The notes under the pieces: model-generated
Told to the model about the DNA's origin: nothing
Databases searched by the model: none
Seen by the model: the letters and a program-made list of their open reading frames with translations, nothing else
Source of the DNA: a virus
Reading direction: 5' to 3' (one strand)
IMG/VR virus record: IMGVR_UViG_3300012954_000010
Location: 34,498 to 98,497 of that record
Length of the DNA stretch: 64,000 nt
Shown here: piece by piece, positions 1-64,000 of the stretch
Layout of the letters: each line of letters opens with the position of its first letter
Position numbering within the stretch: position 1 is the first letter of the stretch
Position numbers and translations under genes: made by a program

Positions 1-3000
1 TCGTGCAAGACCATTCTTTCTAACATAGAATGAATTATCTGCAAGAACGCTGTCATACAACCAAGGAGAAGAATCTCTCTGCATTCTTCTGTTGCCATTT
101 TCGTCCAACTGGTATGCAAGTGTTGCTGTTACACCTGAAAGTTGTACCTCATCTGCATAACTAATGTAATCTGTAGAGAAGTACAATTCAGAACTGCCGT
201 TGAACACTGGGTTGTTACCAGATACAACTAATTCAATAGTACGATCATTTGTTCTGGAAAGTTTTTTGATTTTACCAATGATGTTTACAGTAGAACCATC
301 TTTCTGATATACAAACCTTTCTTTATCGTAGTTTATGTTTGTAAATGTGAATACATTATCGTATTGATTGGGACTAGAGTCTGAAATGGTCAGAGTTAGT
401 CTGTTTAAGTATGTGTTCGGTTCAAAATCGTGTAATGCGATAGATTGATCTAGTTCTCGTCCATACAATAGTATTAATTCAATATTGTTGTAATCATATA
501 CTTTTCTAGTAAAACGAATCGCTGGACCGTTGATGCTGTATGCATCACGACGCTGCATGACACCATCAATGAATACAAACATGTATCTAGGATCGTCTAC
601 AGTTTGTACATTATCATCTTCTTTCCTAATAATAATGAATGGACCAGCAGAACCATCCAGGATACCTGAGGTATCTAACTTGCATCGCTTGTAGTTACCT
701 ACACCATGCATTGCAATTCTTTCTACCGCTAGTGGTTCCTGCACAGTCTTAACATTCTCACCTTGGTCCCAAATTGGAGCTCCACTGAACACAATTCTGT
801 TTGGTGTTTGAGTTTTATCGATAAAATACGCACCATCATGCTGTAAAATGCCACTGATGGACACAAACAGGTTCTCATCATCATCTAGGTCAACAACGCC
901 TCCATCTTCATAATAAAGATCAAAGATTGTATTCTCGTTATTTGTATAATCAGGTAGAGAGATCTCTACAGTTCCAGGTCCAGTAACCAAAGTAGACTTG
1001 ATACCATCATACAAAGAATCTAGTGCTGAAGCAACTTCTTCACACTCGCTAAGTGTTGCATTGACCAGTAGAGGGTCAGGTAAGATGTTTTTGTTTACAT
1101 ATGTTTTCAGCGTAGTCCAGTATCCAGTAGAACTTTCATTTTCTGGAGTTGCTACTACTCTATTAGGTCCTCCTTGTAGAATAGTTGTCACTACATTGAT
1201 ATAAGATGTAATAGCACTTTCAACATCAGCACAGTATGGTGTTATATTGTCCACTCTGACCAGAGGATCAGTGACTGGAGCAATAATTGTAGAACCAGAG
1301 ATATTGTTTCTCATAGCAAGAATCATGAGATCGCGAGCAACCTCATTTGCATAGATTGTTTCTAGCAATTCACCTTGAATATGATTTAGTTTGTAGTTGT
1401 TGAAATATGCCTCTGCAAATTCAACAACTTTCTGGGTTCCACCCCAGCGAAGTGAGTATACGATAGCATCTACTAGGATGCCAGTATCTCTGAAGCAGAA
1501 GTCTTCTGCTTCGACCCATTCTTTAATACCAGTGTTAACTGTAGTAGTTGGTGCTGTATTGTTTGTGAGTGCGTCGGTTAGAATACCGAATAGAGTTGTA
1601 ACCGCAGAGTTTACGTTTGTGCAGTCAGGAACAAGGATAATACCAGGATCTTGTACTGTACCTCTGTTATTGATTGCTTCGATGCAAAGATCTCTTGCAA
1701 AGTTAAAACCATATATCGATTCTGTTCGTTCTCCATCTAGTGCGTCGTGATTTGTGAAATATCTGTTGGTTGCTGCAATAGTGGCAGAGTTTCCACCCCG
1801 ACCAGTATCTTCAGCAACAGCGGCGATAACAATCTTCAAATCTCTTGCACATTTTTCTGTAGCAAATTCTGAACCATACTTAGTATCCAGTTCCGCAATA
1901 GTTTGTGTTACGATGTCTTGTAGATTATCGTAAATAAGTCTTCTTCCATCTTTAAATCTGAAAGCTGCTTCAGGAACTCTAGGATATGTAAACTTAGGAT
2001 ACTTATCATAGATTCTGTGTGCTGCTTCTCTTTGGATGTTAATTTTGTTTGCTTCAATTAGTGTAGAAGCATCATAGAATGTACCATTATTAAGTCCACT
2101 CCAAATAAATGTCATCTGTGCATTTGCAGAGACATTAATCTGTCCACTTTGAGGTAGTGAAATAGTATATGTTGCACCCTGATCAATTTGAATGAAAATA
2201 CCAGGAGCAATCTGTAAAATTGGAGCAGTTGATTGATCAGTAGTTAAAATTTGATTAACAGTTAACTGCTGTAGTGTGTTGGAAATATTGAGAGAAGGTT
2301 GACTAATTCTAATAGTTCTCTCGTCAATAATTTCAGTAACAGTTGTTGCTGGATTGAATGCTCTACCAGCACTAATCTTCATACCAATAGCAATGTTATC
2401 GCTATTTGATACAGTAACTAAATCTGTACCAGGAGTCCAACTGACTTGTCTGTCAACAAAGTCCCAGTTACGCATTGCCAACTTACAAAGTCTAACAGCG
2501 TAATCATATGCTTTGATAGATGCTTCTAATTCTCCGTCGATGTATGCCAGAACACCATCGATAAAATATTTCTCGATAGCATCAATAGTCTTACTGTTAC
2601 CACCAAATCTTAAATCATGCTCAAGTGCTTCAACGACTAATCCAATGTCTCTATAACACTTAGTACCTAGAGTTCCCCATGATAGGTTTGGATATTCATT
2701 TTGAATGTAACCAAGAGTCTCAGATTGAATGAACGCTTTGTTCATTGCTAACTGGTTTGCAGAGTCAATCCATGTACCTTCTCTCTGGTAAATATTTCTG
2801 ACTCTCTTCAGATATCTTGCATTTAGAGTTGCATTCTTAAACTCAAAATATCTACAATGGAATGTTACACCAGGAACTTGCTGTCCATCTTTAACACTAG
2901 GTCCTAATGGAGGTGCAGCAAATGTAATTTTGTTTCCATTGACTGTATATGCTCTTCCAGGTTCTTGTAAGATACCATCAAGAGTAATGGTCAATGCTTG

Positions 3001-6000
3001 CTCATTATATGGAGAGATAGTAGCACCAGTATTATCAACTAATGTAAATACGGTTCTACCCTCTAGATTTCCACGGTCTGTAAATGCTCCAGTGAAAGCT
3101 CCATTTAGATATAGTTCCTTCGCTCTGATCTCTGTCGTATTGAATGTCTCAAGACCAATAGATCCAGCACCACGCTCAATCTTAAGTTGCTCTGTTTTAA
3201 TAACAGATGTAGTAACTTGCTTCTTGGTACTAACAACAGTGATTTTGTTTTTGTTAGGATCCCAGAGTTGTACGATACTAGTGCCGACTGTCTTCGTATT
3301 TGGAGACATAGGTACTGCAGAGTCTGACTCAACCAACACTTCTCCAAATAATTGGAAACCTGCAGGGTGAGTTGTCTTCTTAATTAACTCTCTCCAAGAA
3401 TTAATTGAAGTACGAGACTTAACAACATACGAGTAATCTTGATAATAGAATGAATCAGTTAGTCTTTGGTTAGAAGAACTAACCACACCTTGGTCATCTT
3501 GGAAGCTTCCGATGTTGTCAAAATATGTTTTAATATTTTTATTAAATTTAGAATACGCAATGGTATCCAGTACAGCTGTGTTGCGTCTAGAAATGCCTAA
3601 AATTTCAATGTTTTCTCTAAACAATCCAGTGATGTCTTTTACGATCAAAATGTTGGATCCTTTTCTCCAAGAAACCACTTTTGCTCTAGCAGTTTCTACA
3701 CCAGAATTTGTTTGAATTATTGTTTCGCCAATCCCAAATGCATCTTCTCTAAAATTAGATACTTTGAAAATATAATTTGATCTGATAGTTGAACTTAGAG
3801 TCTTATCATTATGGTAAGATCCACCATTGTTAATGATTCTTACATTTCTAGGCAAACCAATTGTTTCACTGGTAAGGTAAACTCTTACATCAGACTCAAC
3901 AATATTAATTGTTGGTGGAGTAGTATAACCAGAACCAGGATGCTTAACTACAATACCAGTTACTCTTCCCTGATCTTGTACAACTTCCAGTAAAGCATTA
4001 CCTTCAACAATTGCTTTTGCTTTCGAGTAGTTAGATCCATTGTTAGTTACTACGACAGCAGACAAAGATCCATCTACAATATCTGCTGTTGCCTTTGCAA
4101 CATATGTCGGTGTTGGTAACACACCAGTTACAATAGGAAGTTTTCTATACTCGGTTCCAGTGTTGATTACATTGACAGTGTTAATCTCACCAACTGAGAA
4201 CTGAGACATAGAGTTATACTTGATAACTCCTGTTCCGTCATGTGGAGCAGCAATTGTTGTGTCGTATACAATAGATCTTGGTGTAACATATAGTGCAGAC
4301 TTCTTGCCTTGTAGGGGATCATCTACAACATTAAAGAATCCAGTTTCCGAAGAAGACTGACCATTCTTATCAAAGTAGTAATACTTAGAGTATTGTAATG
4401 CTTGTTTTTTAGAATATGAATTATTTGTAAGTCTTGATCCGAAACCAAGTTTTAAATCAACAATCCCACCATTGATTGTTCTTTCTGTAGTAACAATGTT
4501 ATAATTGATACTTGGAGAAATTTCAAACGCTCTTCCATTCATAGAAGGGTGAGCAGTATTGAAACTATATTTGTAGAACTTCTTAATATCAATTACAGGG
4601 TTTCTTGTAAACTCTAGATTGTCAGAAGAAAATTCAAATACAGATTTTGCTGGTTCTATATCTAAAATTCTAACTAGTTTCTGATCAGCACTCTGATCAA
4701 AGAATACTGTGCTTAGAGAAACTTCATTGATTGTACTTAGAGTTTGATCATATCCAAATACAACTTCAGCAACTTGAGTTGACGCATCATATTCTTCGAT
4801 GACTGGATCTCTAGGACTAGATCCAAGAGCAAATCCTTTTGGTAAATTAAATGCAGGTGCAATCTGTGTTAATGCAGCACCATCAAAATGTTCTACCGCA
4901 GTAGTTCCTAACTGTCCTCTCAATACAGTTAGTACATTGTCAGTTCTATTAACTACCTTTACGATCTCACTGCCAATTCTGATAAAATCATCTGCAGTGA
5001 ATCCAGTACCATCAGCTACATTGATATCAGTTTCTTCTGCACCAAGACCAACATGGTCTACACGAATCTGAACACTACCAGTTGTTAGATCTGATTTTGA
5101 GAGATAAGCAGCACTAACTGTAAGGACATCACCTCTCTTGTATCCAGTTCCCTTCTTATCCGATCTTGGTGCTACAGATGTTACATATCCTTCAGGTCCA
5201 ACAACTATACGCGCTGTTGCGTCCTCTCCAGATCCACCAAGTAGAGGTGCCTCTGCATATGTTTGGTTTGGTAGGTAGTCAGCACCACCAGTTAGGAGCG
5301 TCAGTTTACCAACACCAGTATCCGTGAGAACCGTTGCAGCAACTGGGATGTTGAACTTAATTTTTTGATAAATTCTACTTCTTACATAGTATAGTGTTGT
5401 TGATGATGAATCGTCTGGATTGATATCAACATCAATCACATCATTAACACCAACACCATGATCTTGACTGGTCTTCAGTATTGCAACATTGTTGTTAATG
5501 TTGAAAATAATCAAACCACTACTTAGAGAACCAACTTGGGCAACATTAACACCAGGAGTATCAAGTAAATTTGAACTTCTGATAAAATAGTCGTCTGTTG
5601 GTGTAAATGAACCAAATACTAGTCGTACTTTTACACTATTCTTAGAAATAGTAGTTTCTAGCACAATTCCTTGTGCAATTACTGATGCAGCACCATCAGT
5701 GTACTCAAGCATTGCACCAGATGTGTATGATGCATTCTCATCAAGAATTAAATTTAGTACAGTTGTATTAGAACTGAGTGTGTCTCCAGTAGAAAACTCA
5801 CCACTTACATTTCTAAGTGCAAATTTCTTACCAGAGAATACATCACCAACAATCTCACCAGACGCACCAGTTACATCTTGAGTGATAGTATCACCATCAA
5901 ACAAATATGCAGTGTTGGAAAGATTGACCAGTAGCGCCTTTGTAGATTGAGACTCAATAGACTCAACTTGTTTTCCTTTTACAGAAGATACTTCTGCAGT

Positions 6001-8724
6001 GGCACCAAAACCACTGGTAGATGTATTGTCAATGAATACTTCAGATCCTACAGAGAATGTATCGACACTAGAATAGATCTCAGCACCAGATACATTACCT
6101 CTTTCGATATCTTCAATAACTGCTACTGCCAGTTCACCATTAGCATCGATGTCAGCAGTTCTGAGTCTCGTAGAAGTCTTAGGAATGTCAGTATGAGACA
6201 ATGCCTGTGTATAGTTTGAATCTCTAGGAATAGAATAATAGTTGTCTCCTAGGATATATGGGAACTGTGGGTCGTCATTACCATCAACAGTAATGAAGTA
6301 TGCATAAGTTCCTTCTGGGTAGTCTGGAGTCACACAGAATCTACCATTGTTTTGATCTAGGTGTCCACTCTGGTGAACATAAGTATAATCTTCAAAAAAT
6401 GAACCTAACGGATAAGTAGCAACAGCAGGTCCATTACTTCTTGCAATATTTTTAGTGTAACTAGAATCCATTCTTACAATGGAACTAGTAGGATCTAGAG
6501 CATCAGAAAAACCAAAAGCACCGTAAATAGGATTGCCATCATAAGCAAATCCTAAAATAGGAGAGTGGTTAGATCCATTATCGTTTTGTCTCAAAGCAGT
6601 TGGTGATGCATAGTATGCATACCCATAATCTTGAGAGATATCTTTGTTTTGGATAGCATAACCATTATTACTATCTAACTCAGACGAATATAGTTCATAA
6701 CGATTCTTAGTCCATTGCAATACTTTAGATTCTGCAATAGCACCAGAACCAACAGCAATAACATCTACACGAATGTTCTCTGCTGTATAACCGCTACCTT
6801 TATTGATCTGAATAAAATCAACTAGTTGACCTGCAGGAGAAACTACAGCAGTGTAGTCAGCAAATCTTCCTTTACCTGCTAGATCTATAATTCTGATGAC
6901 TGGTGAGGAAGAGTAGAACTCACCTGGGTTCGATACCACTAAACTAGTGATTTCACCATTAGTAATGATTGGTGTTACTACACCGTTTCTACCAGATACA
7001 ACTTCTACTTGTGGGTTGCCTTGATAGTTGCCAGGATTGTCTACTACAATAGACTCAACAACCTGACCTGCCATTTTTGCTCTAGCAATACCAGCAGCAC
7101 CGTCTACTAATACAAATGGTTCTCTTGCATAACCAGAACCCCTGTTGAGCACAGCGATCTCTTGTAGTGGACCATTGAATACTTTCTCAGTATCCTTGGC
7201 ACTCATTGCAACAACACCATTTACAAAGATACCAACATCTCTATCGTTGGTTTTGTAAATCTCTGTGGTGCTTGTAGGTTGCTTTGGTATAATTCTTAAT
7301 TGACGCTGATCCTTAATAGGAACATTCAATGTGAATGGGTGATCAGGGAATCCAGAAGATGCAATGTAATAGTCTGTGTCATCCTCGAAAACTGCAGATA
7401 CACCAGAGTTTAGTAGTGGTAAACCAGATACTTTACCACTTGATAGATTCCATCTAATATTATTCTGAGAGTCAACAATTTTTTGATTCGTTGTCTCAAA
7501 TCCTGGTCTAGAAATTTCTAGTTTTTCACCAGCAACTGCATATGGTTCTTTAGTCTCAGATTCTACTGAATATAAGACACCTAAGATTAAAATTGAGTCT
7601 GTACCTACATTGACTTCAGCAGCGTCATATACAAGACTGCCCGCAGTGTAAGAAGAACTGCCAGATCTGGTCTTGATGGTAAATTGATTGACATTTTTAG
7701 TTTCAAATGTGAAGACTTCGTTCTCAATGTAGAACTTACCAGTCTCACCCCATCCCATAGTAGAAAACACATCAACAACTGTGCTGCTGATGTCAATGTC
7801 TTCTGTTAGTTTTGTTTTAGATGAAATTACAAAGTCACCATTGACAGTTTCTTCTGCCAAGATAAATTCGTATAAATCAATACCGTCATATGTACCAGAG
7901 AATAGTACATTGTCGATGGTAGCAGAAGCGTAGTTACCATCTAGGTTTTGGACGATTTGTTTTCCAATAAATGACTCTGGAGAACCAGAAATGATTTTTA
8001 CTTTTAGAGAATAGTTATTAGTCCATGTAGACTCAGATGACTTGAGTGTATAATCTCTAGGATATAATACCTCAGGGTTCTGGTCATTAGGAACTAGACA
8101 TTTGAACAAAAACTTGATAGAGTTCTTTGTTCCCTTAGATTTGTAAAAATCACCGATGTTTTTGATCAGTGTTCTTTGATCAACCTTCTCATTTAGAAAT
8201 GCTATAGGAAAGTCTGGTAAGTATTGTGCCTCGAAACTCTTCACAAGAGCAAAGAGGAACAGATTACTAATATTTTGTACAGTAGAACCATTTGGGTGGT
8301 CTGCTGCTTGTGTAGTTACAAATGTAGACTCATTATACAGATCTCCCAGTGTAGTGTTACCACTTACACCTCTGCTTACATGGAGAAACTTTGTATCGGT
8401 TCTTTCTTTGTAAAAACAAATTTCGTCGTTTACTGCTAAGTATCCTGATGTAGGAAACGCAGTGGCATCTACTACAGTAATAGTAGTATCAGTGTCTTGT
8501 GCAAATTCTGCAAGTTTAGTCTCTTGCTGCAGAATTTTCTTCTCATAAAAATCAATATTACGATATGTCGCAATATTGTTTGCAATGTCTAATGGTTGCC
8601 CTTGTAATTCAAGCTGCTCATAATACTTCTGCACGAACTTACCAAAAAGTTCGTACTCATCGCTGATAAATGCTGGAAGTTGATCTTCAATTAAAAGAGA
8701 GATCTTATTAGCAGTTTTAGGCAT
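1..8724 (-). CDS. Very large baseplate wedge initiator (gp7-like/VrlC-like), 3' end outside window
   Basis: ATG at 8724 directly after the gp6 stop: MPKTANKISLLIEDQLPAFISDEYELFGKFVQKYYE. gp7-type motifs NIGDFYKSKGTKNSIKFLF (~8100-8160) and WRELIKKTTHPAGFQLFGEV (~3340-3400), plus a YHYH-like domain (HSPILGFAYDGNPIYG, ~6250-6570). The same frame reads open at 1-60; not every codon checked. Absent from the ORF track because there is no stop in the window. Confidence 0.85.
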   Translation of the reverse strand, partial: MPKTANKISLLIEDQLPAFISDEYELFGKFVQKYYEQLELQGQPLDIANNIATYRNIDFYEKKILQQETKLAEFAQDTDTTITVVDATAFPTSGYLAVNDEICFYKERTDTKFLHVSRGVSGNTTLGDLYNESTFVTTQAADHPNGSTVQNISNLFLFALVKSFEAQYLPDFPIAFLNEKVDQRTLIKNIGDFYKSKGTKNSIKFLFKCLVPNDQNPEVLYPRDYTLKSSESTWTNNYSLKVKIISGSPESFIGKQIVQNLDGNYASATIDNVLFSGTYDGIDLYEFILAEETVNGDFVISSKTKLTEDIDISSTVVDVFSTMGWGETGKFYIENEVFTFETKNVNQFTIKTRSGSSSYTAGSLVYDAAEVNVGTDSILILGVLYSVESETKEPYAVAGEKLEISRPGFETTNQKIVDSQNNIRWNLSSGKVSGLPLLNSGVSAVFEDDTDYYIASSGFPDHPFTLNVPIKDQRQLRIIPKQPTSTTEIYKTNDRDVGIFVNGVVAMSAKDTEKVFNGPLQEIAVLNRGSGYAREPFVLVDGAAGIARAKMAGQVVESIVVDNPGNYQGNPQVEVVSGRNGVVTPIITNGEITSLVVSNPGEFYSSSPVIRIIDLAGKGRFADYTAVVSPAGQLVDFIQINKGSGYTAENIRVDVIAVGSGAIAESKVLQWTKNRYELYSSELDSNNGYAIQNKDISQDYGYAYYASPTALRQNDNGSNHSPILGFAYDGNPIYGAFGFSDALDPTSSIVRMDSSYTKNIARSNGPAVATYPLGSFFEDYTYVHQSGHLDQNNGRFCVTPDYPEGTYAYFITVDGNDDPQFPYILGDNYYSIPRDSNYTQALSHTDIPKTSTRLRTADIDANGELAVAVIEDIERGNVSGAEIYSSVDTFSVGSEVFIDNTSTSGFGATAEVSSVKGKQVESIESQSTKALLVNLSNTAYLFDGDTITQDVTGASGEIVGDVFSGKKFALRNVSGEFSTGDTLSSNTTVLNLILDENASYTSGAMLEYTDGAASVIAQGIVLETTISKNSVKVRLVFGSFTPTDDYFIRSSNLLDTPGVNVAQVGSLSSGLIIFNINNNVAILKTSQDHGVGVNDVIDVDINPDDSSSTTLYYVRSRIYQKIKFNIPVAATVLTDTGVGKLTLLTGGADYLPNQTYAEAPLLGGSGEDATARIVVGPEGYVTSVAPRSDKKGTGYKRGDVLTVSAAYLSKSDLTTGSVQIRVDHVGLGAEETDINVADGTGFTADDFIRIGSEIVKVVNRTDNVLTVLRGQLGTTAVEHFDGAALTQIAPAFNLPKGFALGSSPRDPVIEEYDASTQVAEVVFGYDQTLSTINEVSLSTVFFDQSADQKLVRILDIEPAKSVFEFSSDNLEFTRNPVIDIKKFYKYSFNTAHPSMNGRAFEISPSINYNIVTTERTINGGIVDLKLGFGSRLTNNSYSKKQALQYSKYYYFDKNGQSSSETGFFNVVDDPLQGKKSALYVTPRSIVYDTTIAAPHDGTGVIKYNSMSQFSVGEINTVNVINTGTEYRKLPIVTGVLPTPTYVAKATADIVDGSLSAVVVTNNGSNYSKAKAIVEGNALLEVVQDQGRVTGIVVKHPGSGYTTPPTINIVESDVRVYLTSETIGLPRNVRIINNGGSYHNDKTLSSTIRSNYIFKVSNFREDAFGIGETIIQTNSGVETARAKVVSWRKGSNILIVKDITGLFRENIEILGISRRNTAVLDTIAYSKFNKNIKTYFDNIGSFQDDQGVVSSSNQRLTDSFYYQDYSYVVKSRTSINSWRELIKKTTHPAGFQLFGEVLVESDSAVPMSPNTKTVGTSIVQLWDPNKNKITVVSTKKQVTTSVIKTEQLKIERGAGSIGLETFNTTEIRAKELYLNGAFTGAFTDRGNLEGRTVFTLVDNTGATISPYNEQALTITLDGILQEPGRAYTVNGNKITFAAPPLGPSVKDGQQVPGVTFHCRYFEFKNATLNARYLKRVRNIYQREGTWIDSANQLAMNKAFIQSETLGYIQNEYPNLSWGTLGTKCYRDIGLVVEALEHDLRFGGNSKTIDAIEKYFIDGVLAYIDGELEASIKAYDYAVRLCKLAMRNWDFVDRQVSWTPGTDLVTVSNSDNIAIGMKISAGRAFNPATTVTEIIDERTIRISQPSLNISNTLQQLTVNQILTTDQSTAPILQIAPGIFIQIDQGATYTISLPQSGQINVSANAQMTFIWSGLNNGTFYDASTLIEANKINIQREAAHRIYDKYPKFTYPRVPEAAFRFKDGRRLIYDNLQDIVTQTIAELDTKYGSEFATEKCARDLKIVIAAVAEDTGRGGNSATIAATNRYFTNHDALDGERTESIYGFNFARDLCIEAINNRGTVQDPGIILVPDCTNVNSAVTTLFGILTDALTNNTAPTTTVNTGIKEWVEAEDFCFRDTGILVDAIVYSLRWGGTQKVVEFAEAYFNNYKLNHIQGELLETIYANEVARDLMILAMRNNISGSTIIAPVTDPLVRVDNITPYCADVESAITSYINVVTTILQGGPNRVVATPENESSTGYWTTLKTYVNKNILPDPLLVNATLSECEEVASALDSLYDGIKSTLVTGPGTVEISLPDYTNNENTIFDLYYEDGGVVDLDDDENLFVSISGILQHDGAYFIDKTQTPNRIVFSGAPIWDQGENVKTVQEPLAVERIAMHGVGNYKRCKLDTSGILDGSAGPFIIIRKEDDNVQTVDDPRYMFVFIDGVMQRRDAYSINGPAIRFTRKVYDYNNIELILLYGRELDQSIALHDFEPNTYLNRLTLTISDSSPNQYDNVFTFTNINYDKERFVYQKDGSTVNIIGKIKKLSRTNDRTIELVVSGNNPVFNGSSELYFSTDYISYADEVQLSGVTATLAYQLDENGNRRMQRDSSPWLYDSVLADNSFYVRKNGLAR

Positions 8725-12125: not shown

Positions 12126-12581
12126 TTATTGTTTTGTACCGATTAGTATTGTAGGATAAGGAGTGACTCCTGTCAAGTCCCTAAACTTAGGTGTGCCACT
12201 TGGAGCATTGACTGTATCACCACTGACAACGACTCGCTTGCCTTCAAAGAAGACAGTGGTGTTGACCTTCCCAAGGATGTTGAGACGCTCCAACGGTGGT
12301 GGGACAGGTGGTAGTATATTAGGCCATGTTCCTGGAACAGGTAGCGGTGGTCTGTCAGGATCGACAACCAGCATCGGCACACCTGTTGGTGCTTCCTTTG
12401 TAGCACCTGTTCGCAATGTCTTTAATTCTGTTGGATAGTTCGCAGCACCTTGAATAGGATACGCTGGATACTGGGCGCTGATCTCATTCCTAGTCGATGG
12501 AGAGTCCAACGCAGCTCCAGTAACAATCGTACCCTCTAGAGGGTAATCTATACCAGCAACAGGCGAATCATCAGTTGACAT
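12126..12581 (-). CDS. Divergent PAAR-like (gp5.4-like) spike-tip protein
   Basis: TTVFFEGKRVVVSGD resembles the PAAR motif VFING.P.AR.GD; Pro-rich; near gp25. Confidence 0.45.
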   Translation of the reverse strand: MSTDDSPVAGIDYPLEGTIVTGAALDSPSTRNEISAQYPAYPIQGAANYPTELKTLRTGATKEAPTGVPMLVVDPDRPPLPVPGTWPNILPPVPPPLERLNILGKVNTTVFFEGKRVVVSGDTVNAPSGTPKFRDLTGVTPYPTILIGTKQ

Positions 12582-22276: not shown

Positions 22277-22612
22277 TCAAAGTGATGAACCTCGTTGGAA
22301 CTTGGCGATGTCTGCCAGTGTGATTCTAGCAGCATAGTTATATGATTTACTGCCATCATCATGCTCTGTAACATCCTGCTGTGCTGCCAAGTGACCATAT
22401 GCGTCATCAAATGCATCAGCAGGACGGTGACCCTGCATCAGATCATACAAATCAGATGCTTTATCAAGTTCCTTACGATGATAATCAATGTTATCTTGAA
22501 TTGCCATCAGCATCTGCTCATAGCAAGCGCGAGCATCTAGAGTATCATCATTAAGATAATCATCAACACACTCTTGCATACGCTTATTTCTCTGTTGTGA
22601 ATAAGATTCCAT
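22277..22612 (-). CDS. Hypothetical protein
   Basis: 111 aa, coupled. Confidence 0.65.
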   Translation of the reverse strand: MESYSQQRNKRMQECVDDYLNDDTLDARACYEQMLMAIQDNIDYHRKELDKASDLYDLMQGHRPADAFDDAYGHLAAQQDVTEHDDGSKSYNYAARITLADIAKFQRGSSL

Positions 22613-24197: not shown

Positions 24198-24263
24198 GAT
24201 AGTAACTTGGGTATGGATTTAATATACTACATTACATGCTCATGTGCAAGCATGGTAGACACT

Positions 24264-42900: not shown

Positions 42901-45900
42901 AGGTTGTAAGAGATCTCTTCTGCAAAGTCAATGAGGTCATCGATGCAGTCCTGTGGATCACCAGTAGGAGTCGTGAATCCAGGATTTTCTGCAAGCATTC
43001 TTGCATATGCTTCGTTTGCAATGAATGACTTGTTAGCAACGATTAGATCACGAGCGTCACCATTACGGTCTACAAGTGGATCTGGTAGATCATATGTAAT
43101 TGAATTATCAAATGTCTGGGTGTAACCATGTCTATACTGTGATGCAGTTTTAGTTACATTACCTAGACTAGATGGTGTAGTAACAGCATCGATTACAATC
43201 TGTCCAAGAGTAGCAACGCTAGACTGAATGTCATCACAAGAGCTGACAGAGTTAGTGCGTGTTACATTGTATAGGTAAGTGCCCTGACTTGTAATACTAG
43301 ATGTAAGAATATTGACTAGAGTAGTGATACTAGCAGCCTCATTTGCACAGCGAGGAGTGTTAGTATCAGTTGTGATTGAACTGTCAATTACCTGAGTCAG
43401 ACCTGTGTGACCACCAACAGTGATAGTCTCATTACGCATTGCCTGAATCATCATATCTCTCGCTTGGTTGAAAGCGTAGATAGTCTCAGTCTCTTCACCA
43501 GTTACATGAGCACCAGTTGCATAGTAGTTAGCAGCATCCCATGTTCTGTCGTTGCCGCCATATGCTAGGTTGTGTGCAACAACATCAATAACATCTTTGA
43601 TGTCATCTAGGCAGTCATTGTTGTTTCCAGTAGGAACACTGAATGTAGGATACTGTGCAAGCATTCTGCCCAGTGCAATCTCTGCAATGAAATCTTTGTT
43701 TGATAGAACTAGATTACGAGCATCACCTGCTTTATTGTTGACAGGAGTTGCAGGGTTGACAGTGATAGAAGTGTCATAGACCTGAGTGAAACCATGGTTT
43801 CCAAGGATTAGAATCTCCTCATTCCTCATTGCCATAGTCATCAGACTGAGAGCAAATTCAAATGCCTTGACAGTCTGAGCTTCTTCACCAGCAACATGAG
43901 CACCCTGAACATACAGGTTTGCCATGTCCCAAGTCTTATCATTACCACCGTATGCCACATTGTAAGAAATCTCATTAACGAAATCTACAATGTCATCAAT
44001 ACAGTCTTGTGGGTCACCAGTTGGTGTAGTAAAACCAGGATTTTCTGCAAGCATTCTTGCATATGCCTCAGCAGCAATCAGATTTCTGTTAGAAATCATC
44101 AAGTTCTTAGCATCAGCTGCACGGTTAGAACCACCAGCACCAATCAAGAGAACCTTCTGGTTTCTCATGACATCTACCATGATGTCACGGGCATGATCAA
44201 ATGCTTCGATGGTCTGAGACTCTTCACCAGCAACATGAGCGCCAGTTAGATATAGATCAGCAACTTCCCATACTCTATCGTTACCACCAAATGCAGTGTT
44301 GTATGCAACTTCTTCTACGAGATCTGCAATGTCATCAACACAGTCCTGAGTGTTACCAGTAGGAGGAACAAAACTAGGATTGTTTGCAATCATGCGAGCG
44401 TATGCTTCGTTCGCAATCATTGTCTTGTTAGCAAGAATCAAGTTGCGAGCATCGCCACCACGATCTGTTACAGAATCAGGTGCATTGTATGTAATAGTAG
44501 AATCAAATGTCTGAGTTAGACCATGAGCACCAGTAATTAGAACCTTCTGGTTCCTCATTACCTGAGCTGCCATGAGCTTTGCTTGCTCAAACACATACAG
44601 TGTTTGTAGTTCTTCGCCGCTTACATGTGCTCCCTTGACATAGGAATATGCTGCGTCGAATGTCTTATCATTACCACCATATGCAGTGTTGTCTGCAACT
44701 GCTTCTAGGAGGTCTACAACATCATCAATACAGTTGATGTTACCACCAGGGACAATGAATGTAGGATACTTAGCAAGCATTCTCTCGACTGCTTCATTAG
44801 CAATCAAGTTCTTGTTAGCAAGAATTAGATTACGAGCGTCACCATTACGGTCTTGTACCAGTTCTGGTGCAACATAAGTGATAGATGTATCCTTAGTCTG
44901 AGTTAGACCATGCGTGCCATAGATGAACACATCCTCATTACGCATGACCTGAATTGCCATGTCGCGTGCATACTCAAATGCTTTAACAGTCTGAGCTTCT
45001 TCACCAGCAACATGTGCTCCAGACTCGTATAGGTATGCTGCATCCCATACTTCATCGTTACCACCATAAGCAAGGTTCTCAGCAACAGCCTCGATAACAT
45101 CTACAATGTCATCAATACAATCTTGTGAGTTACCAGTTGGTGTAGTAAAACCAGGGAAGTCTAAGACCATACGGTCATATGCTTCTCTAGCAATAAAGTT
45201 TTTGTTAGTTAGGATCAGGTTACGGGCATCTCCGTTACGATCACCAACTAGTTTCTTAGTAGAATAGGTTGCCTTCTGTCCAAGCTCAATCTCAGTAGAA
45301 CTAACAACACGCTTAACATATGTGTCATTAGGAATAACTGGAGATGCAGGACGGGTTGCACCATTGTTGAGCTTACCATCAGTAAACTCTGATGGGTCGT
45401 AGTCTGCAACACGCATACCCTGAACGACACCAGAAGTATCACCGATGTCAACAATAGCAGAAGATGCTGTTGTAGCTGCTCCTGTACGCAAGTAGGAGAA
45501 GTTACGCATTGCTGCGATTGCTAGGTCTCTAGCGTAGTCGTAACCCTCTAGAGTTTCTGTCAGCTCACCAATGATGTAAGACAGACTGTTACCAACATAG
45601 TAAGACTCTGCTGCTTGGATGGTGTTGATGTTACCACCAAGTCTCAAGTCTTGTACAGTAGCATCGATTAGATAACCGATGTCACGACGGCACTTCTCAA
45701 TAGTAATGCCTTGCTTATCTAACAGGTATGGATACTTGTTAGTAATGTAACCATATGCTTCTTCTGCAATGAAGAGTTTGTTATCTTCAATTCTATCAGC
45801 AGCATCTAGATTCTTATGGTTAATAGTGATACCAGAAGGATTGAGAATATCTGCAGATGCAGTAAACTTCTTGAATCCATTTGGAGACAGAGTTGCATTG

Positions 45901-47750
45901 AAGATATTGCTGCCACCAGCAGTTCTAGGAATCAGTTTTACATATAGTTTCTCATCGCTTCTAGCACCTAGACGGAATCCATCGATAGATGCAGCAGGAC
46001 GAATTCTAGGATTGTATCCTTCATCATCACCTAGGTAGATCTTAGTTTGATCAGTTGCAGTGTTCTGGTTCTTAGTTGCAGGTACATCAAGAGTGTAGTA
46101 AGCAGAACGCTTGATGTTGCCAGTAGTTGTATCAACAACTTTAGGTGGAATAATATCTGTAACATAACCACCCTTGTCCTGACTGAACGCAAATCCTTTG
46201 TGACCAATTGCGTGTAGTGAGGTGTTACCAAAGTTGGAGTTAGAGTTGGTGATCGACATGTCACCACCACTTTCCATTAGGAAGTGATCAGCGAAACCAA
46301 CAGCGAAGATCGAAACGTTCTGGATGAATGCATCTTCAGATGCACGAACATGGAAGTTTCTCCAGTCATCTTTCCAGAATGCATCACCCTTGGTGTGATA
46401 TGGAGTGGTTGCAAAAGCGTCTGCTAGAGATGCTTGGTTGAATGTGTTAGAGTATTCATCATAACGAATGAACGCTCTATCGTCTTTCTGCAGCGACACA
46501 CCCGTGTACTGCGCGATAACCATCGACTTGAATCCAGTCGCCTTCAGACCATTTGCCCAGATACCACAAATACCCCAAGTAGATCGGATGGAGCAGTTGA
46601 AGACATATGGAGATGCAGACTCAACAGAGTCAACTTCTGCTTTGACGATAGCGTTGGAACTTAATCCATTCTGAGAAGTGTAGGTAGTTCCGCTAACAAG
46701 ACTGACATTAGTTCCTAGTGCAGCAACAGTTCCAGGAATTTTGTAAGTAAACTTACGCTGGTCAACTAGGTCAATCTCACTGATAGAGAAAGCACCGTTA
46801 AGTTGATCATCAAGACCATTGTTTTCAATAGCAACAAACTGGTTCCTAAAGTAACCATGGTTAACTTTGGAAGTAACTTCAACACTAATAGTACCAGCAG
46901 GACTGGAGTCTGTTAGTTTGATGCTCTCAATAGAACGGAAGTCAGACAGAGGTCCAACAATTCTGTTCTCCTCAATTCTCTCGCTGAATTCACGAGGATC
47001 ATCAATAGTTGGTTGATATTGTGAGAATGCCTTAGCAATCTTTTGATAATACAGACCTAGTTCTTCTTTGTCTGCATATTCAAATACAGTTAGTTTGTGG
47101 TGAGAGTAGTTAGGAACTGCTTTCTGGTCCCAATAACCATTCTGATAGTATACTTTACCGATACCATCAGTCTTGTCAAATAGAGGAGAAGATGGTTCTA
47201 AGTCACCATCCTTAATAGTAAACTGCCAGAAGTAGCAAGCACCTGTTACATTAAAGATAGCGGATCTCTTCTCTAGCCTGTCAGCAGGGTCAGGAACATA
47301 GAGGGGGCGAACAACAGTGCGGCGCAGATCGTAACCAACCAGAGATGAACCACGAGGAAGAATAGCGCCACCCTCGGTATTGTTGAAAAGATAGAGAACA
47401 TTGTTAGGGTCCGAAATATCTAAGTTAGAGTTATCGGTCCACAAATTCATCGCCTGATCAAAGGCGAAAGGATCGATACCATTTGTATCTACAATACCTG
47501 GGCGGTTATCAATATAGTGGTTACCAGGCATCAACATGATAGTGAACTGGTCAAACCTATCATTGTCTGGTCCAGGTAAGTATGAGTACCTGGCAATTTC
47601 TAAGAATGCACGCTGAATCGACTTGAAGGGTCTGATGGGCGAGTTGCCTCTATTATTCAGCTCATCTGTCGCATTAAAGTCGTCAGGTGAGACATAAAGA
47701 TACTTACCAGTCTTAGAGCTGATAAGATTATCAAGTCTTGTCAAAGCCAT
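33984..47750 (-). CDS. Giant virion structural/fibre protein (~4,590 aa)
   Basis: Start MALTRLDNLIS at 47750, downstream of the TATAAATA promoter; YVSP.D..ATD...NRG....PFKSIQRA N-terminus; internal repeats; C-terminal GWWLMEL. Confidence 0.85.
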   Translation of the reverse strand: MALTRLDNLISSKTGKYLYVSPDDFNATDELNNRGNSPIRPFKSIQRAFLEIARYSYLPGPDNDRFDQFTIMLMPGNHYIDNRPGIVDTNGIDPFAFDQAMNLWTDNSNLDISDPNNVLYLFNNTEGGAILPRGSSLVGYDLRRTVVRPLYVPDPADRLEKRSAIFNVTGACYFWQFTIKDGDLEPSSPLFDKTDGIGKVYYQNGYWDQKAVPNYSHHKLTVFEYADKEELGLYYQKIAKAFSQYQPTIDDPREFSERIEENRIVGPLSDFRSIESIKLTDSSPAGTISVEVTSKVNHGYFRNQFVAIENNGLDDQLNGAFSISEIDLVDQRKFTYKIPGTVAALGTNVSLVSGTTYTSQNGLSSNAIVKAEVDSVESASPYVFNCSIRSTWGICGIWANGLKATGFKSMVIAQYTGVSLQKDDRAFIRYDEYSNTFNQASLADAFATTPYHTKGDAFWKDDWRNFHVRASEDAFIQNVSIFAVGFADHFLMESGGDMSITNSNSNFGNTSLHAIGHKGFAFSQDKGGYVTDIIPPKVVDTTTGNIKRSAYYTLDVPATKNQNTATDQTKIYLGDDEGYNPRIRPAASIDGFRLGARSDEKLYVKLIPRTAGGSNIFNATLSPNGFKKFTASADILNPSGITINHKNLDAADRIEDNKLFIAEEAYGYITNKYPYLLDKQGITIEKCRRDIGYLIDATVQDLRLGGNINTIQAAESYYVGNSLSYIIGELTETLEGYDYARDLAIAAMRNFSYLRTGAATTASSAIVDIGDTSGVVQGMRVADYDPSEFTDGKLNNGATRPASPVIPNDTYVKRVVSSTEIELGQKATYSTKKLVGDRNGDARNLILTNKNFIAREAYDRMVLDFPGFTTPTGNSQDCIDDIVDVIEAVAENLAYGGNDEVWDAAYLYESGAHVAGEEAQTVKAFEYARDMAIQVMRNEDVFIYGTHGLTQTKDTSITYVAPELVQDRNGDARNLILANKNLIANEAVERMLAKYPTFIVPGGNINCIDDVVDLLEAVADNTAYGGNDKTFDAAYSYVKGAHVSGEELQTLYVFEQAKLMAAQVMRNQKVLITGAHGLTQTFDSTITYNAPDSVTDRGGDARNLILANKTMIANEAYARMIANNPSFVPPTGNTQDCVDDIADLVEEVAYNTAFGGNDRVWEVADLYLTGAHVAGEESQTIEAFDHARDIMVDVMRNQKVLLIGAGGSNRAADAKNLMISNRNLIAAEAYARMLAENPGFTTPTGDPQDCIDDIVDFVNEISYNVAYGGNDKTWDMANLYVQGAHVAGEEAQTVKAFEFALSLMTMAMRNEEILILGNHGFTQVYDTSITVNPATPVNNKAGDARNLVLSNKDFIAEIALGRMLAQYPTFSVPTGNNNDCLDDIKDVIDVVAHNLAYGGNDRTWDAANYYATGAHVTGEETETIYAFNQARDMMIQAMRNETITVGGHTGLTQVIDSSITTDTNTPRCANEAASITTLVNILTSSITSQGTYLYNVTRTNSVSSCDDIQSSVATLGQIVIDAVTTPSSLGNVTKTASQYRHGYTQTFDNSITYDLPDPLVDRNGDARDLIVANKSFIANEAYARMLAENPGFTTPTGDPQDCIDDLIDFAEEISYNLAFGGNDRTWDMSNLYVTGAHVVGEESETVQAFEYARDLMIQVMRNEDVLVTGSHGLSQTKDTTITYNEPTPVNNKSADAKNLILANTNFIAEIAFGRMQAANSGFTVPTNNDADCIDDIKDIIKVVAHNLAFGGNDRTWDAANLYATGAHVAGEEAQTIQAFNEARDIMIQVMRNEDVTVGGYTSLTQVKDLTITVDQANPTCQQQEATITSLVLLLTNTITSGTSLYSVTRTFSQGPCDDVRSAITTLAAIPINAVTTPASLAGVTRTVSAGSCEDVRSSITTLTQIVTDTIAGNITLYDLAKTASEGSCEDTRVTINTLFKIVEDAVATPTSLGSVTRTISNGSCQDIASGITTLFKLLTDTIENPGYIDSVARNPVPLGLEFGPSINANSSSTNSYLYFTLDAGVYSSTTPTTDETITQHTTYPECVDQASTIRQYFANISTIIQTGLASVARTEPPTLTTELAARATVWTLDNNGSNPHNLETGTAVRLVPRPRYDTVTNQYVDVDKRLVRLPNGFETNEKYYVIAPGRTTKPEDYSNIGAFDGSDQTKIMLASSKENAAAGIYIHSAEVEDIHPDVEIDIYNFVLDDNYDLHQYSCELDGVSNTNIRTDVPHIFDVPFPNITGHTVFFRANEGGQLPLVGSAYAADPTVADGNGRILGNVYFFARYINEKVFTIYKTKSDAEAGVNEITFQPGTYDFSVFANKRESPMKFDPAFTNPGTAPVIYGKWYLQTENDLGTDQIIGRIREYADGIDKTNDSYFERVKDERDALDRIYRLRYVIPSYLQSARDPINGFTIKTRTDETRKLVPQRLVLKPVSGNVTKARFFNPVQSNEVIGVTKSEFETLNLNPDVEYDPYRKDLTGTTQYAKKIETQNYVTMTIESGRYFTAADNNDYLELNVINPEITNAALINETFTTIKVTAPQGGNFVADKTQSSDAVNRVEWFGNSSGYGYLHAITNVPGTSDWYMILKGVVGAITFDTIENIRIGQGAAFSDLLADPDFGKSLVIKELIRKNYPEFYYRQNGAPVYTVTPGDIIEDDAGIQYYIESVTDTGVIDDTFYIFDVEEVQRRIFGQQDGIYYLTAVRGNISPFPQGAGNLGNFRNFKFSQPISKLYPLNYKNDPLWYQKLDATLVDPPATYSAADNYVHGLVRVNDFKGSMTKEAMIDLLATPALKNNSYTQVSSTVDNRLIAQSGNAASGSEDRKIPIAGDSTVMSDQRYYVELRRPSIARAGNHTFEYLGFGPGNYSTGLPARQEVVLTATQDFYAQSKKQDGGLVFYTGLNSNGDLYIGNRKIDAITGEEEFLESATLQDSADDDETLGNLVTTFDTPVTFNEYITVNGGEAQDRRSTFNSPVLINVLGTVREAALTISSFVDPAVDDGSLDRNAFLRNQETEGDIVIARNKISAAIFQFNSRRDGQPYKIQTHIVGTSPSNITPDQYGAFNASQIVQYGSAGAPLAGDMLLKGESVGQSGSLGWIYANFFTEIGNTNIYTLTFNNTNIVTIEWGGSLTNDLLGITSGSEIRILGMTDSQVDGTWQVIANGFSGAANTVQIAINNVKNSVQGDNPRLWADEVAANANITMEFSNSNWKEFGVLGAEAIRTNTANIGDYKLGVNTVARSERDSYQTNFIDSNTTPRANLDVVGTAFISGKKVTDYASHSVFANRTQEDRTDALMVGGDAYTPVNEATFRVSTANGGRVGINVTNAELDRALVVDGESRFTGDARFQEDIEVHGGGGSNTAEIRTDITSGNFDIIPDSTFTGALRIAPQGTTLRMLNDSQSDQFLYFGNSSLHSNIWIGNTPHTGTNISKITIGGAYNNNESLSFVNIATKSFKVDGDFQLGNKRGLLDTVRLTSTAGTVEFFAGNSATSVLDFATNASQITIGGQGGSTTIRNNLVVDSSARFNADMTLCGGFASYSFVASRGQAGSTKIAHPTGILGNNLFNSNVDLIDVNRFVSGDPQYNEIDTSGSGNWGGTNYQQEITNIGGNPTIEPQDLPTLTGNQYYLPLLRESLDANGNPYFQENDILLLDSPDSANTATVTTEFGSYTDGNAPQGIITGYEGGVEIAFSGPGTGNGGGFNTGQKYLAFFTNSQETTTGPRSVNFQSLDASFINNNGPVIRIEIDVYVGNNNNGGEVPDRSGAGQEEGLQIRYSTDDGASFTSAGFICPTDLDDFDPSTWPTFVQWIDQSKNYARLSLDMPVNAQTGGVVFQLYQEAISGDSVDHYGITNMRYTTTSVGSNVEFVRVVSLPRISTAPYYLVVEREPFGTFTAVSNAHPDRTAIYKCIVQFDATWTEQPIDDQGNDENVYLAQFGGTIAIGDYVIIGRESSANNSVFDIGEVFKVKTLLSQVAKKFRIKNGCDSNNEETVYEVDSTTGAVKSKGDQELTGSLTIKGSCTTPFTNSPTNKKLTITNGATNPITTFEVDTCTGDTKIGNTHATVFFNAEAFGTSPAAYTADVDVCTVYRFDPQSELTTGPITTLPASIVAATTNIQIASNLDAFMKGDLVAMYVTGSQIEIIQVTDDPYEAGGLFFLPTSSNAAYPNGGRGVEGTTAQNFAAGVQVVKLEKYERTTTLLHDVPATQGDRATALKARTPNTSDLRLELTLRDGDLISPKLDYFTMMRIGTEFFVADSVDGSLDVFYAIKLPKSVRVPNVVTTPIVELYNGGKVTIQDDLTINSGVLRMFGSDGKTLVLSISNDDGHSGDGSIEDPLTNTNGMTLKGAATFYGDLKIFYDDCQMNGICSTETSFRVTNREGNVLMGETFYQKGQLKVDEDATQSIFHIDNLGSAGVGGTEGAKDFRIYQNNAIDSFGIEKYWTGNGGRRHTYVAFDASTGIGQQQDNPLEVNNNYMVNASSGSNMVLYLPDNAQTGDMIRFIELSGNLTYNTSLILRAKKINNIATPIQGDSTGSKIGAGAGQTLTTTWDSGELVVQTRNASFGLVYAGTVDIEGSANARTIPPALRGWWLMEL
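41520..45820 (-). repeat. Eight ~125-aa helical repeats plus eight ~36-aa closing segments within the giant protein
   Basis: DA..LI..NK..IA.EA...C.DD....GGND....GAHV.GEE...MRN units and C.D....I.TL...VTRT units. Confidence 0.85.
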
Positions 47751-47791
47751 ATTTTTCCTAACCTGCTGAGGTATAAGATCCGATCTTCGAT

Positions 47792-47799
47792 TATTTATA
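47792..47799 (-). promoter_or_regulatory. T4 late promoter TATAAATA
   Basis: Exact consensus about 40 nt upstream of the giant gene. Confidence 0.85.
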
Positions 47800-47810
47800 C
47801 CACTATTAAA

Positions 47811-47883
47811 TGGAGAATAGGAGACTCGAACTCCTGACATCCTGCTTGCAAAGCAGGCGCTCTACCAACTGAGCTAATTCCCC
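47811..47883 (-). tRNA. tRNA-Ala(UGC)
   Basis: GGGGAATTAGCTCAGTTGGTAGAGCG CCTGC TTTGCAA GCAGG...GTTCGAG...; G3:U70 pair; CCA not encoded. Confidence 0.95.
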
Positions 47884-48413
47884 ATGAAGAAGTTGAAGTT
47901 TATTACACATCTGACCTGAGCGTCTAGTTGACTAACTCCTCTGTGAAGTCTGTCAGATCTAAACAAAATCATCCTGTTTGCAATAGAGTTGACAATTTTA
48001 CCATCCTCAAACTCAGTATAACCGTCGTTACTATTGACATAATATATGCCAGTTGTCATTTTCTTACTGGGTTTTCCATCACCACCTCTGTAGTCATGAT
48101 GAAAATCACTGTAATATCTTTCTGGTTTGATTGGTTCTAGATTTGCCTTCACTCGATGCAAAGCGAGAATATTTAGGTTATCTAGAATTGGTGTAATTGT
48201 GTCAAAGTGTGGAGATTTTGTCATGTCATAATGATATTGACTCTCTTGCTTGAAAAATGGATGAATGAACTGATAATTCATCATAGAGTCATCATCTCCT
48301 GCTTTCTTACATAGGATCCATGGCAATGGACCAGCAATCATGTAAGACTGCAGTTTTTCATGCTCTTCAGGTTTTAGAAAGTTATCGAATATTTGCATGA
48401 TAAGAGGGGGCAT
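47874..48413 (-). CDS. 2OG-Fe(II) oxygenase superfamily protein
   Basis: FHHD...IYYVNSNDGYTEF...NRMILF...HRG...RCVINFN; true start may be the ATG at 48398. Confidence 0.85.
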   Translation of the reverse strand: MPPLIMQIFDNFLKPEEHEKLQSYMIAGPLPWILCKKAGDDDSMMNYQFIHPFFKQESQYHYDMTKSPHFDTITPILDNLNILALHRVKANLEPIKPERYYSDFHHDYRGGDGKPSKKMTTGIYYVNSNDGYTEFEDGKIVNSIANRMILFRSDRLHRGVSQLDAQVRCVINFNFFMGN

Positions 48414-48424
48414 TCCACCCCCAG

Positions 48425-48670
48425 TGAGTTACTTGGGTAACAAGGCTAACTTGACCCCGATCTCCTTATAGATCAGGCAGCAACAGGGGCTGCTTGACGG
48501 GAGAATGCAACGATGTTGTTCGCTGCGACATCAGATGTGTTTGCATCTATTGGGTGCTTATCCAAGCAGGTTTCAGTCACGCTCCTTGTACCCCGTCGAA
48601 ACCATGGCACCCCCGTGAATGGAAGTGAGGGGAATCGAACCCCTGTCCGAAATGTAGGTGGCGTCACCTA
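48425..48670 (-). ncRNA. ssrA: Permuted two-piece tmRNA (picocyanobacterial type)
   Basis: Acceptor piece ends ...GGGGTTCGATTCCCC-TCACTTCC-A at 48620; 5-nt spacer; coding piece starts GGGGGTGCCATGGTTTCGAC at 48614; G3:U70 pair; tag ANNIVAFSRQAAPVAA* (48523-48473). Outer ends approximate. Confidence 0.92.
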
Positions 48671-48686
48671 TTCCACAAAAGTGGAA

Positions 48687-48760
48687 AGCCACTCAACGGA
48701 CTTGAACCGTTGACCTACTGTTTACAAAACAGTTGCTCTATCCAGCTGAGCTAGAGTGGC
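48687..48760 (-). tRNA. tRNA-Thr(UGU)
   Basis: GCCACTC acceptor stem; ACTGT-TTTGTAA-ACAGT anticodon arm; GTTCAAG T loop. Confidence 0.93.
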
Positions 48761-50167: not shown

Positions 50168-50178
50168 TTAATTCTCCA

Positions 50179-50262
50179 TAGGAGTGGGGGGACTTGAACC
50201 CCCACGATGTTACCATCAGCGGATTTTAAGTCCGATACGTCTACCGATTCCGTCACACTCCC
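50179..50262 (-). tRNA. tRNA-Leu(UAA)
   Basis: GGGAGTG acceptor stem; CTTAAAA anticodon loop; long variable arm; GTTCAAG. Confidence 0.93.
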
Positions 50263-50711
50263 AAAAATTCATAAATCACATCGCTGCCCCACATTTTTTT
50301 ATTGCGGTTCGCGGTCCATCCTCGGTCACGACTCTTATATCTAGTACCGTCGAATTCTACCATACTTTCGACGAATCCACCATTCACTAGACATTCATCT
50401 GTAGCAACTTTACCTTTGTAGATACCGTTCTCCAGAGTGAATATCATATCACAACAACCACGATGTCCCTGCCAGTTTACTCCCCAGTTCTCAACACGGA
50501 TGTGATCACCTTCAGTATAAACTTTATGCCAACGCTTCCTATATGGTTTTTCTTCACCAAGATAGTGATACCATTGCTTAGACTCTAGTTGTTTGGGTCC
50601 TAGTCTAGTCCAGCGAATTTTAACATGAGCATATCTGGCAGGATCAGCAGATGCCTGCTTCCAACTATCGTAGTATCCTTCTAATTTATCACAAAATTCT
50701 TCAGCATTCAT
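50253..50711 (-). CDS. cpeT: Second CpeT/CpcT-like lyase
   Basis: LEGYYD...QA.ADPARYAHV...KPYR...CDM.F...SRDRGW...WGS. Confidence 0.8.
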   Translation of the reverse strand: MNAEEFCDKLEGYYDSWKQASADPARYAHVKIRWTRLGPKQLESKQWYHYLGEEKPYRKRWHKVYTEGDHIRVENWGVNWQGHRGCCDMIFTLENGIYKGKVATDECLVNGGFVESMVEFDGTRYKSRDRGWTANRNKKMWGSDVIYEFLGV

Positions 50712-59947: not shown

Positions 59948-59948
59948 A

Positions 59949-63966: not shown

Positions 63967-64000
63967 GATAATAACCTCAGATCGTATATTTATTTAGATC

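Follow-up and report, generated by a model that had tools for sequence, protein, structure and literature searches.

A predicted ACGT-specific restriction–modification cassette and a probably separate, family-wide loss of CCGG in a T4-like marine cyanophage

The window analysed here is a stretch of 64,000 bases (positions 34498-98497) of a 98,497-base viral contig in IMG/VR (IMGVR_UViG_3300012954_000010), whose completeness is estimated by CheckV at ~51%. Its gene content identifies the source as a T4-like marine cyanophage of the family Kyanoviridae. Marker genes comprise those of the baseplate (gp6, gp25, gp5, and T4_baseplate), tail-collar fibres, CpeT, a bilin reductase, a cyanophage outer-membrane-protein domain, and 2OG-Fe(II) oxygenases, and the nearest cultured relative found for the region is the syntenic Synechococcus phage Sf-CH1b. 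Positions 22813-24155 on the minus strand hold a two-gene cassette that, judged from sequence comparison, is most likely a type II restriction–modification (R-M) pair specific for ACGT.

The upstream gene of the cassette (23532-24155, minus strand; ATG at 24155-24153, TGA at 23534-23532) encodes a protein of 207 amino acids (P0003) that is, according to its structural model, a restriction endonuclease of the HinP1I/MspI fold; its predicted target is ACGT. The AlphaFold (AF2) model, built from 25 homologues, has a predicted local distance difference test score (pLDDT) of 86.7 and retrieves HinP1I (E 4.6e-10) and MspI (E 4.9e-4) in Foldseek searches. In VIA-align, it superimposes on HinP1I (1YNM) with Z 15.7 over 182 residues and a root-mean-square deviation of 2.8 Å, and on MspI (1SA3) with Z 10.2 over 157 residues; the next match is HhaI, with Z 4.5. 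Homology to HinP1I is detectable also at the sequence level, with a family profile of 21 members (down to 22% identity) that matches the HinP1I sequence at E 1.6e-6 (profile positions 66-206 against HinP1I 97-240). Eight residues are invariant among the 21 family sequences (E20, D40, K51, T58, Q59, R98, W163, and Q184) and two more (S49 and K38) are conserved in at least 90%; the invariant E20 aligns with E18 of HinP1I. The putative catalytic residues of the phage nuclease (D40, S49-x-K51) are spaced D-X8-S-x-K; the catalytic motif of HinP1I is D-X18-Q-x-K (D62, Q81-x-K83).

No Pfam family matched the nuclease protein, and the models for R-HINP1I (PF11463) and Endonuc-MspI (PF09208) gave no hit at E<=1 when the contig was searched in six frames, which places the nuclease in a separate, unnamed subfamily. 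A search of the PDB with the single nuclease sequence found no match either, and HinP1I was reached only through the family profile and the fold search. In PHROGs, the nuclease belongs to phrog_25220, whose function is unknown. Fold and profile match nevertheless bear out the original prediction, made from the bare sequence, that the phage encodes an MspI/HinP1I-like nuclease. The family is widespread in marine phages, with several hundred homologues found in addition to loci on viral and metagenome contigs.

The stop codon of the nuclease gene overlaps, as ATGA, with the start codon (ATG at 23535-23533) of a gene for a beta-class DNA methyltransferase of 240 amino acids (22813-23535, minus strand; PF01555, E 5.9e-45), in which motif IV (...TSPPYN...) lies N-terminal to motif I (...PFLGSGTT...). 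The SPPY motif points to N4-cytosine rather than N6-adenine methylation, and the protein is probably the cognate ACGT methylase. A putative promoter of the pair, with the sigma-70-like sequence TTGCAC-N17-TATATT, can be read upstream of the nuclease gene (24221-24249, minus strand).

At this locus, relatives have either the whole cassette or none of it. Comparison of positions 22813-24905 of the window with the related loci L085, L087, L088, and L093-L099 shows the R-M pair to behave as an insertion/deletion between a DUF4385 gene and a small conserved open reading frame (ORF; homologue of 22612-22791); at the empty sites, the DUF4385 gene and the homologue of the small ORF (orf59) are ~270 bases apart. 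In some relatives, an adjacent 2OG-Fe(II) oxygenase behaves as part of the same insertion/deletion. Among 50,697 phage records, the nuclease occurs only in Sf-CH1b, five S-RIM12, and five S-CAM22 records, and adjoins a methylase in all of them; the paper describing Sf-CH1b lists the methylase but not the nuclease. Partners of the SPPY type adjoin the nuclease in several of its subfamilies and make up most of the partner methylases. One clade pairs the nuclease with a Dam-type methylase (PF05869) and is still free of ACGT.

Over its entire length (1-64000), the window is free of CCGG, has GGCC close to the minimum set by its proteins, and is strongly depleted in ACGT and RGCY, as judged by Markov and synonymous-shuffle nulls. 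CCGG occurs 0 times, where a second-order Markov model predicts 32.1 copies and base composition 112; the window contains 246 CCG and 184 CGG trinucleotides. In the whole contig, 56 CCGG are expected and again none is present. GGCC is found 6 times in the window (29 expected) and 8 times in the contig (38 expected). The window has only 8 ACGT (107 expected), and because AGCC+GGCT (28 vs 154 expected) and AGCT (76 vs 189 expected) are both scarce, RGCY is depleted as a class. GCGC (47, with an observed/expected ratio, O/E, of 0.62), GATC (372), and CTAG (260) are present. The words that had been reported by eye as absent, scarce, or present were thus counted correctly, down to the positions of all six GGCC, but the equally strong or stronger depletions of ACGT, AGCC+GGCT, and AGCT had escaped notice.

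Shuffling of codons within 70 ORFs of the contig (300 shuffles) served as the synonymous null. The coding sequence would then contain 89±8 CCGG (minimum 70) instead of 0, 58±6 GGCC instead of 8, and 224±11 ACGT instead of 13. Since synonymous shuffling restores both CCGG and GGCC, their loss was made by codon choice and not by amino-acid or codon usage. Chance, codon usage, and decay by deamination of 5-methylcytosine (m5C) were rejected as causes of the zero count of CCGG; the shuffles never fell below 70, and mutational decay stops short of zero. The residual GGCC are mostly Trp-Pro pairs (TGG-CCN), which cannot be removed synonymously and account for five of the six copies in the window and six of the eight in the contig, so that GGCC has been purged nearly as completely as CCGG. 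The forced copies in the window lie at 12322-12325 (TGG-CCT, minus strand), 24865-24868 (TGG-CCC), 32215-32218, 33081-33084, and 36352-36355 (all three TGG-CCA); the sole avoidable copy is an Arg-Pro pair (CGG-CCT) at 25410-25413. Each of the 15 ACGT remaining in the contig, by contrast, could be avoided synonymously, which fits protection by a methylase. Two hexanucleotides are also missing from the window beyond what its 5-mers predict (AGTACT, 0 vs 8.8 expected; GTGCAC, 0 vs 8.5), and the tetranucleotide GTAC is at 0.6 of expectation.

Among all 136 strand-symmetric tetranucleotides, the word that best separates 36 unique loci carrying the nuclease gene from 39 loci lacking it is ACGT (median O/E 0.16 in carriers vs 0.71 in non-carriers; Mann-Whitney p 5e-7); CCGG fails to separate them. 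The same difference is seen among cultured phages, where the carriers Sf-CH1b (39 observed/345 expected; 0.11), S-RIM12 (71/159; 0.45), and S-CAM22 (194/363; 0.53) all lie below every non-carrier (0.75-0.95); the contig itself is at 0.09. A second, independent set consists of remote homologues (25-36% identity) on metagenome and viral contigs, comprising 60 unique loci (920 kb, GC content 29%-53%), most of which have no more than a few proteins in common with cyanomyoviruses. The most depleted word in this set is again ACGT, with 162 copies vs 1203 expected and a median O/E of 0.03; it is absent from 40 loci and ranks first in 37 of 54. Depletion of ACGT is present in all 11 nuclease clusters (defined at 60% identity). 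A scan of genome contigs with a distant nuclease subgroup yielded a single locus, in an archaeal metagenome-assembled genome (MAG), in which ACGT is likewise the lowest word (5/21).

The strongest argument for the specificity of the nuclease comes from the methylase. Among 81 unique carriers with both flanks covered, ORFs with motifs of amino- or C5-methyltransferases were sought within 1.5 kb of the nuclease gene. The 40 carriers without such an ORF have 3 ACGT vs 799 expected, the word being missing altogether from 38, whereas the 41 carriers with a methylase-motif ORF have 384 vs 1116 expected (Mann-Whitney p 1e-9). The contrast holds within the nuclease cluster of the window itself, with 0/88 in the absence and 234/686 in the presence of a methylase. 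Such a pattern would be expected if the nuclease worked in vivo, cleaved ACGT regardless of the flanking sequence, and could be stopped by the methylase encoded next to it. The largest clade of solitary nucleases comprises L471, L476, L480, L466, L492, and ~25 further uncultured marine viral contigs of 38-112 kb, which have only 4-6 proteins in common with cyanomyoviruses; the solitary form is not found in any cultured phage.

The cassette is read as an ACGT-specific R-M pair because it is ACGT, not CCGG, that tracks the status of nuclease and methylase. The nuclease would be a HinP1I-like PD-(D/E)XK enzyme, probably monomeric, that is coupled through the ATGA overlap to the SPPY methyltransferase of the beta class. 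HinP1I (G^CGC) and MspI (C^CGG) act as monomers and cut at N^CGN, which yields 5'-CG overhangs (PMC7026639); by analogy, the cut of the phage enzyme is probably A^CGT. The methylase would probably produce A(m4C)GT, where m4C is N4-methylcytosine. The phage of the window may owe its protection both to methylation and to the loss of over 90% of its ACGT sites, and related carriers that lack the methylase would be protected by the total removal of ACGT. The enzyme could serve to cleave unmodified DNA of the host or DNA of other phages infecting the same cell. Self-protection by elimination of sites, as originally proposed, seems to hold for this enzyme family, but the eliminated word is ACGT and not CCGG.

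CCGG, by contrast, is lost irrespective of the nuclease. It is absent from the complete genomes of the carriers Sf-CH1b and S-CAM22 but also from those of S-PM2 (196 kb) and P-SSM4 (178 kb), which have no nuclease gene. The same is true of 80-kb samples of S-H9-1, P-TIM40, P-RSM4, S-TIM4, S-SSM7, S-CAM3, Syn1, and P-HM1, in which the gene is missing and CCGG occurs 0 times (24-65 expected), bringing the gene-less cultured cyanomyoviruses without CCGG to 10 of 12. The uncultured relatives with an empty cassette site (L085, L087, L088, L093, L095, L096, and L099) have no CCGG either, and their ACGT counts lie near expectation, being, in the same order, 23/25, 40/55, 26/40, 21/23, 32/30, 33/41, and 25/25 (observed/expected). 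Distant carriers, in turn, have CCGG at expectation (e.g., 28/20, 23/18, 22/20, and 51/41), and the first, second, and fourth of these have 0/30, 0/30, and 0/19 ACGT. The claim that the loss of CCGG is linked to the nuclease does not stand up to this comparison. The data argue, with good confidence, for two separate site purges that overlap in this genome, one a trait of the family and directed at CCGG and GGCC, the other specific for ACGT and belonging to the R-M cassette.

The complete loss of CCGG and almost complete loss of avoidable GGCC, together with the partial loss of RGCY, is probably an old trait of Kyanoviridae that is kept by selection; it is made wholly by synonymous choice. It is probably the footprint of an activity that cuts CCGG (and GGCC/RGCY) and lies outside the cassette, either in the host or in the phage lineage; restriction by hosts in nature and an activity intrinsic to the phages are both compatible with the data. 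The purge of CCGG is ordinary, though extreme, site avoidance of a whole virus family. A literature search on CCGG or restriction-site avoidance in cyanophages returned nothing relevant.

Selection by the enzymes of natural picocyanobacterial hosts, of the HpaII/MspI and HaeIII types, against CCGG and GGCC in cyanomyoviruses of broad host range, the alternative named in the original prediction, has somewhat less than an even chance of being the cause. The palindromic nature of the tetranucleotides, their synonymous removal, and the restriction of residual GGCC mostly to forced Trp-Pro pairs are marks of restriction-site avoidance, which is common in virulent double-stranded DNA (dsDNA) phages (PMC6286503). 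Strain-specific total purges are present also among the relatives, as seen in 80-kb samples for GCGC in three Prochlorococcus phages (P-TIM40, 0/53; P-SSM4, 0/33; P-HM1, 0/42), GTAC in Syn1 (0/229), and CTAG in S-SM2 (0/117). However, the purge follows the virus family and not the host strain. Podoviruses retain CCGG both on WH8109 (Syn5, 143/145) and on MED4 (P-SSP7, 18/21), whereas the myoviruses from the same two strains have none, and the purge is nearly uniform over deep lineages that infect Prochlorococcus and Synechococcus. Further depletions concern GAAC/GTTC in P-TIM40 (41/498), CATG in a 257-kb contig (G004; 39/236), and GGCC in the podovirus P-SSP7 (2/21).

Rather unlikely, but in agreement with a purge that follows the phage family, is the idea that Kyanoviridae encode an overlooked nuclease or DNA-processing activity that would cut CCGG in host DNA and was lost in a single clade, which then regained CCGG. 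The only cyanomyoviruses with CCGG among those sampled are Bellamy (147), S-SM2 (74), SynMITS9220M01 (45), and the uncultured G003 (51), which form one clade in a seven-protein tree. A phyletic-profile screen for genes present in all CCGG-free and in no CCGG-bearing genomes returned two, a paralogue of the 2OG-Fe(II) oxygenases and phrog_484. The latter is a zinc ribbon of 90 amino acids (CxxC...C...C) that is near-core in Kyanoviridae (442 phage records), often lies directly upstream of the large terminase gene, and is present in 13/13 CCGG-free but 0/4 CCGG-bearing genomes, leaving that clade as the only one to lack it among the genomes compared. Its gene is located at 118838-119107 in Sf-CH1b (18838-19107 of locus L166, P0169) and at 70603-70812 in S-PM2. 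It is kept as a lead only, because the phyletic pattern amounts to one evolutionary event, without statistical weight, and has counter-examples in L158 (6/5.2 CCGG) and in L369 and L372 (6/11), which possess both the zinc-ribbon gene and CCGG; moreover, a zinc ribbon of 90 amino acids has no features of a nuclease. It is improbable that the family-wide purge of CCGG (and GGCC/RGCY) is self-inflicted, with an activity of the phage lineage that cuts these words in the host and was lost once, together with phrog_484, in the clade of Bellamy and S-SM2. If true, a genome free of these sites would be 'self' for Kyanoviridae, just as the solitary ACGT nucleases appear to treat theirs.

Several observations weigh against the assignment of the cassette to ACGT, or against parts of the account built on it. 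Among the 41 carriers with a methylase, 11 have ACGT at more than half of expectation (e.g., L011, 34/43; L040, 27/34), so that avoidance is not obligatory when a methylase is present; some subclades could also differ in specificity. Conversely, a few loci without the nuclease gene are free of ACGT as well (L115, 0/19; L144, 0/16; L154, 0/15), and these may have the gene elsewhere in the genome or another enzyme directed at ACGT. The methylases were called with a rough search for motifs instead of with profiles. Prediction of the specificity from the base-contacting residues of HinP1I was tried and rejected: K223 of HinP1I aligns to a glutamate (E186) in the cyanophage clade but to a lysine in distant clades that are equally free of ACGT, and the specificity is therefore not readable at the level of residues. 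No enzyme that cuts CCGG, GGCC, or RGCY was found in the analysis, which did not extend to host genomes.

It is nonetheless very improbable that ACGT was lost for other reasons, such as restriction of ACGT by hosts or methylation-driven mutation, and that the nuclease gene merely travels along. Such an explanation draws on the correlative nature of the association and on the few gene-less loci that are free of ACGT. However, the association spans 11 nuclease clusters, GC contents of 29%-53%, different virus types, and an archaeal MAG, and the depletion is total exactly where no methylase is nearby (3/799 vs 384/1116), which neither hitch-hiking nor mutation would predict. Methylation at N4 or N6 is not mutagenic in the manner of m5C.

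The least tenable explanation is that of the original prediction, namely that CCGG is the target of the nuclease and that the phage escapes by having none, for although the enzyme shares the fold of MspI (C^CGG) and the cultured carrier groups Sf-CH1b, S-CAM22, and S-RIM12 are all CCGG-free, it is refuted by the equal depletion in relatives that lack the nuclease (10 of 12 cultured phages and those with empty sites), by the many distant carriers with CCGG at expectation, and by the failure of CCGG, as opposed to ACGT, to discriminate carriers.

The closest known counterpart of the phage nuclease is R.HinP1I (G^CGC; PDB 1YNM/2FKC), with which it shares the two-domain fold over 182 residues, a detectable profile-to-sequence homology, the glutamate of the N-terminal helix (E18 there, E20 here), the Q-R-x-G recognition strand at the C-terminal end, the small size, and a gene that adjoins its methylase. 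It differs in sequence (16% identity), in being missed by PF11463, in being carried by a phage, in the SPPY amino-methyltransferase as a partner, and in its predicted target, which is ACGT and not GCGC (O/E of GCGC only 0.62 here). With R.MspI (C^CGG; PDB 1SA3) it has the fold in common (Z 10.2 over 157 residues); identity is 10%, PF09208 misses the phage protein, and avoidance of CCGG does not follow the phage gene. Type II enzymes specific for ACGT are MaeII and HpyCH4IV (A^CGT) and TaiI (ACGT^). They recognise the word that is predicted for the phage enzyme, and those that cut A^CGT produce 5'-CG overhangs, as do HinP1I and MspI. Enzymes specific for ACGT are not mentioned by Orlowski and Bujnicki (2008).

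Avoidance of restriction sites in virulent dsDNA phages has been documented by Rusinov et al. (2018; PMC6286503). The cases described here resemble it in the complete or near-complete loss of short type II palindromes from a non-temperate dsDNA phage. Unlike in those phages, however, the avoidance of ACGT is directed at an enzyme of the phage's own, about half of the carriers lack a methylase, and the purge of CCGG spans a whole virus family but is absent from podoviruses on the same hosts. Virus-encoded R-M systems occur also in chloroviruses, lytic viruses in which a 4-bp cutter with a cognate methylase could degrade host DNA and spare the protected DNA of the virus. In the present case, by contrast, protection would be partly or wholly by loss of sites, the host is a bacterium, and the enzyme family is unrelated.

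Elsewhere in the window, two giant ORFs lie among the tail-fibre and baseplate genes, one of 4,618 amino acids at 33984-47840 and one of 3,485 amino acids at 1-8724 (both minus strand), the latter extending into the contig upstream of the window. In the region of CpeT and the bilin reductase, ARAGORN calls a permuted transfer-messenger RNA (tmRNA) at 48382-48709 (minus strand) with a tag peptide ending in ...APVAA, which overlaps the N-terminal start of a 2OG-Fe(II) oxygenase ORF (47874-48413). Nearby are tRNA genes at 47810-47884, 48687-48760, and 50178-50263 (Ala, Thr, and Leu).

Avoidance of restriction sites is in itself textbook knowledge; what is new is the assignment of ACGT to an unnamed subfamily of the HinP1I fold by comparative genomics alone. 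The case also illustrates that, when a missing word is matched by eye to a nuclease encoded nearby, the choice of word can be wrong. If the assignment is true, the N^CGN family, so far represented by GCGC and CCGG, gains a third word, which would help in following the evolution of specificity on a single scaffold. The solitary carriers, which make up about half of the total and have no nearby methylase and essentially no ACGT, would then use a restriction enzyme as a weapon against which the absence of sites from their own genomes is the sole protection.

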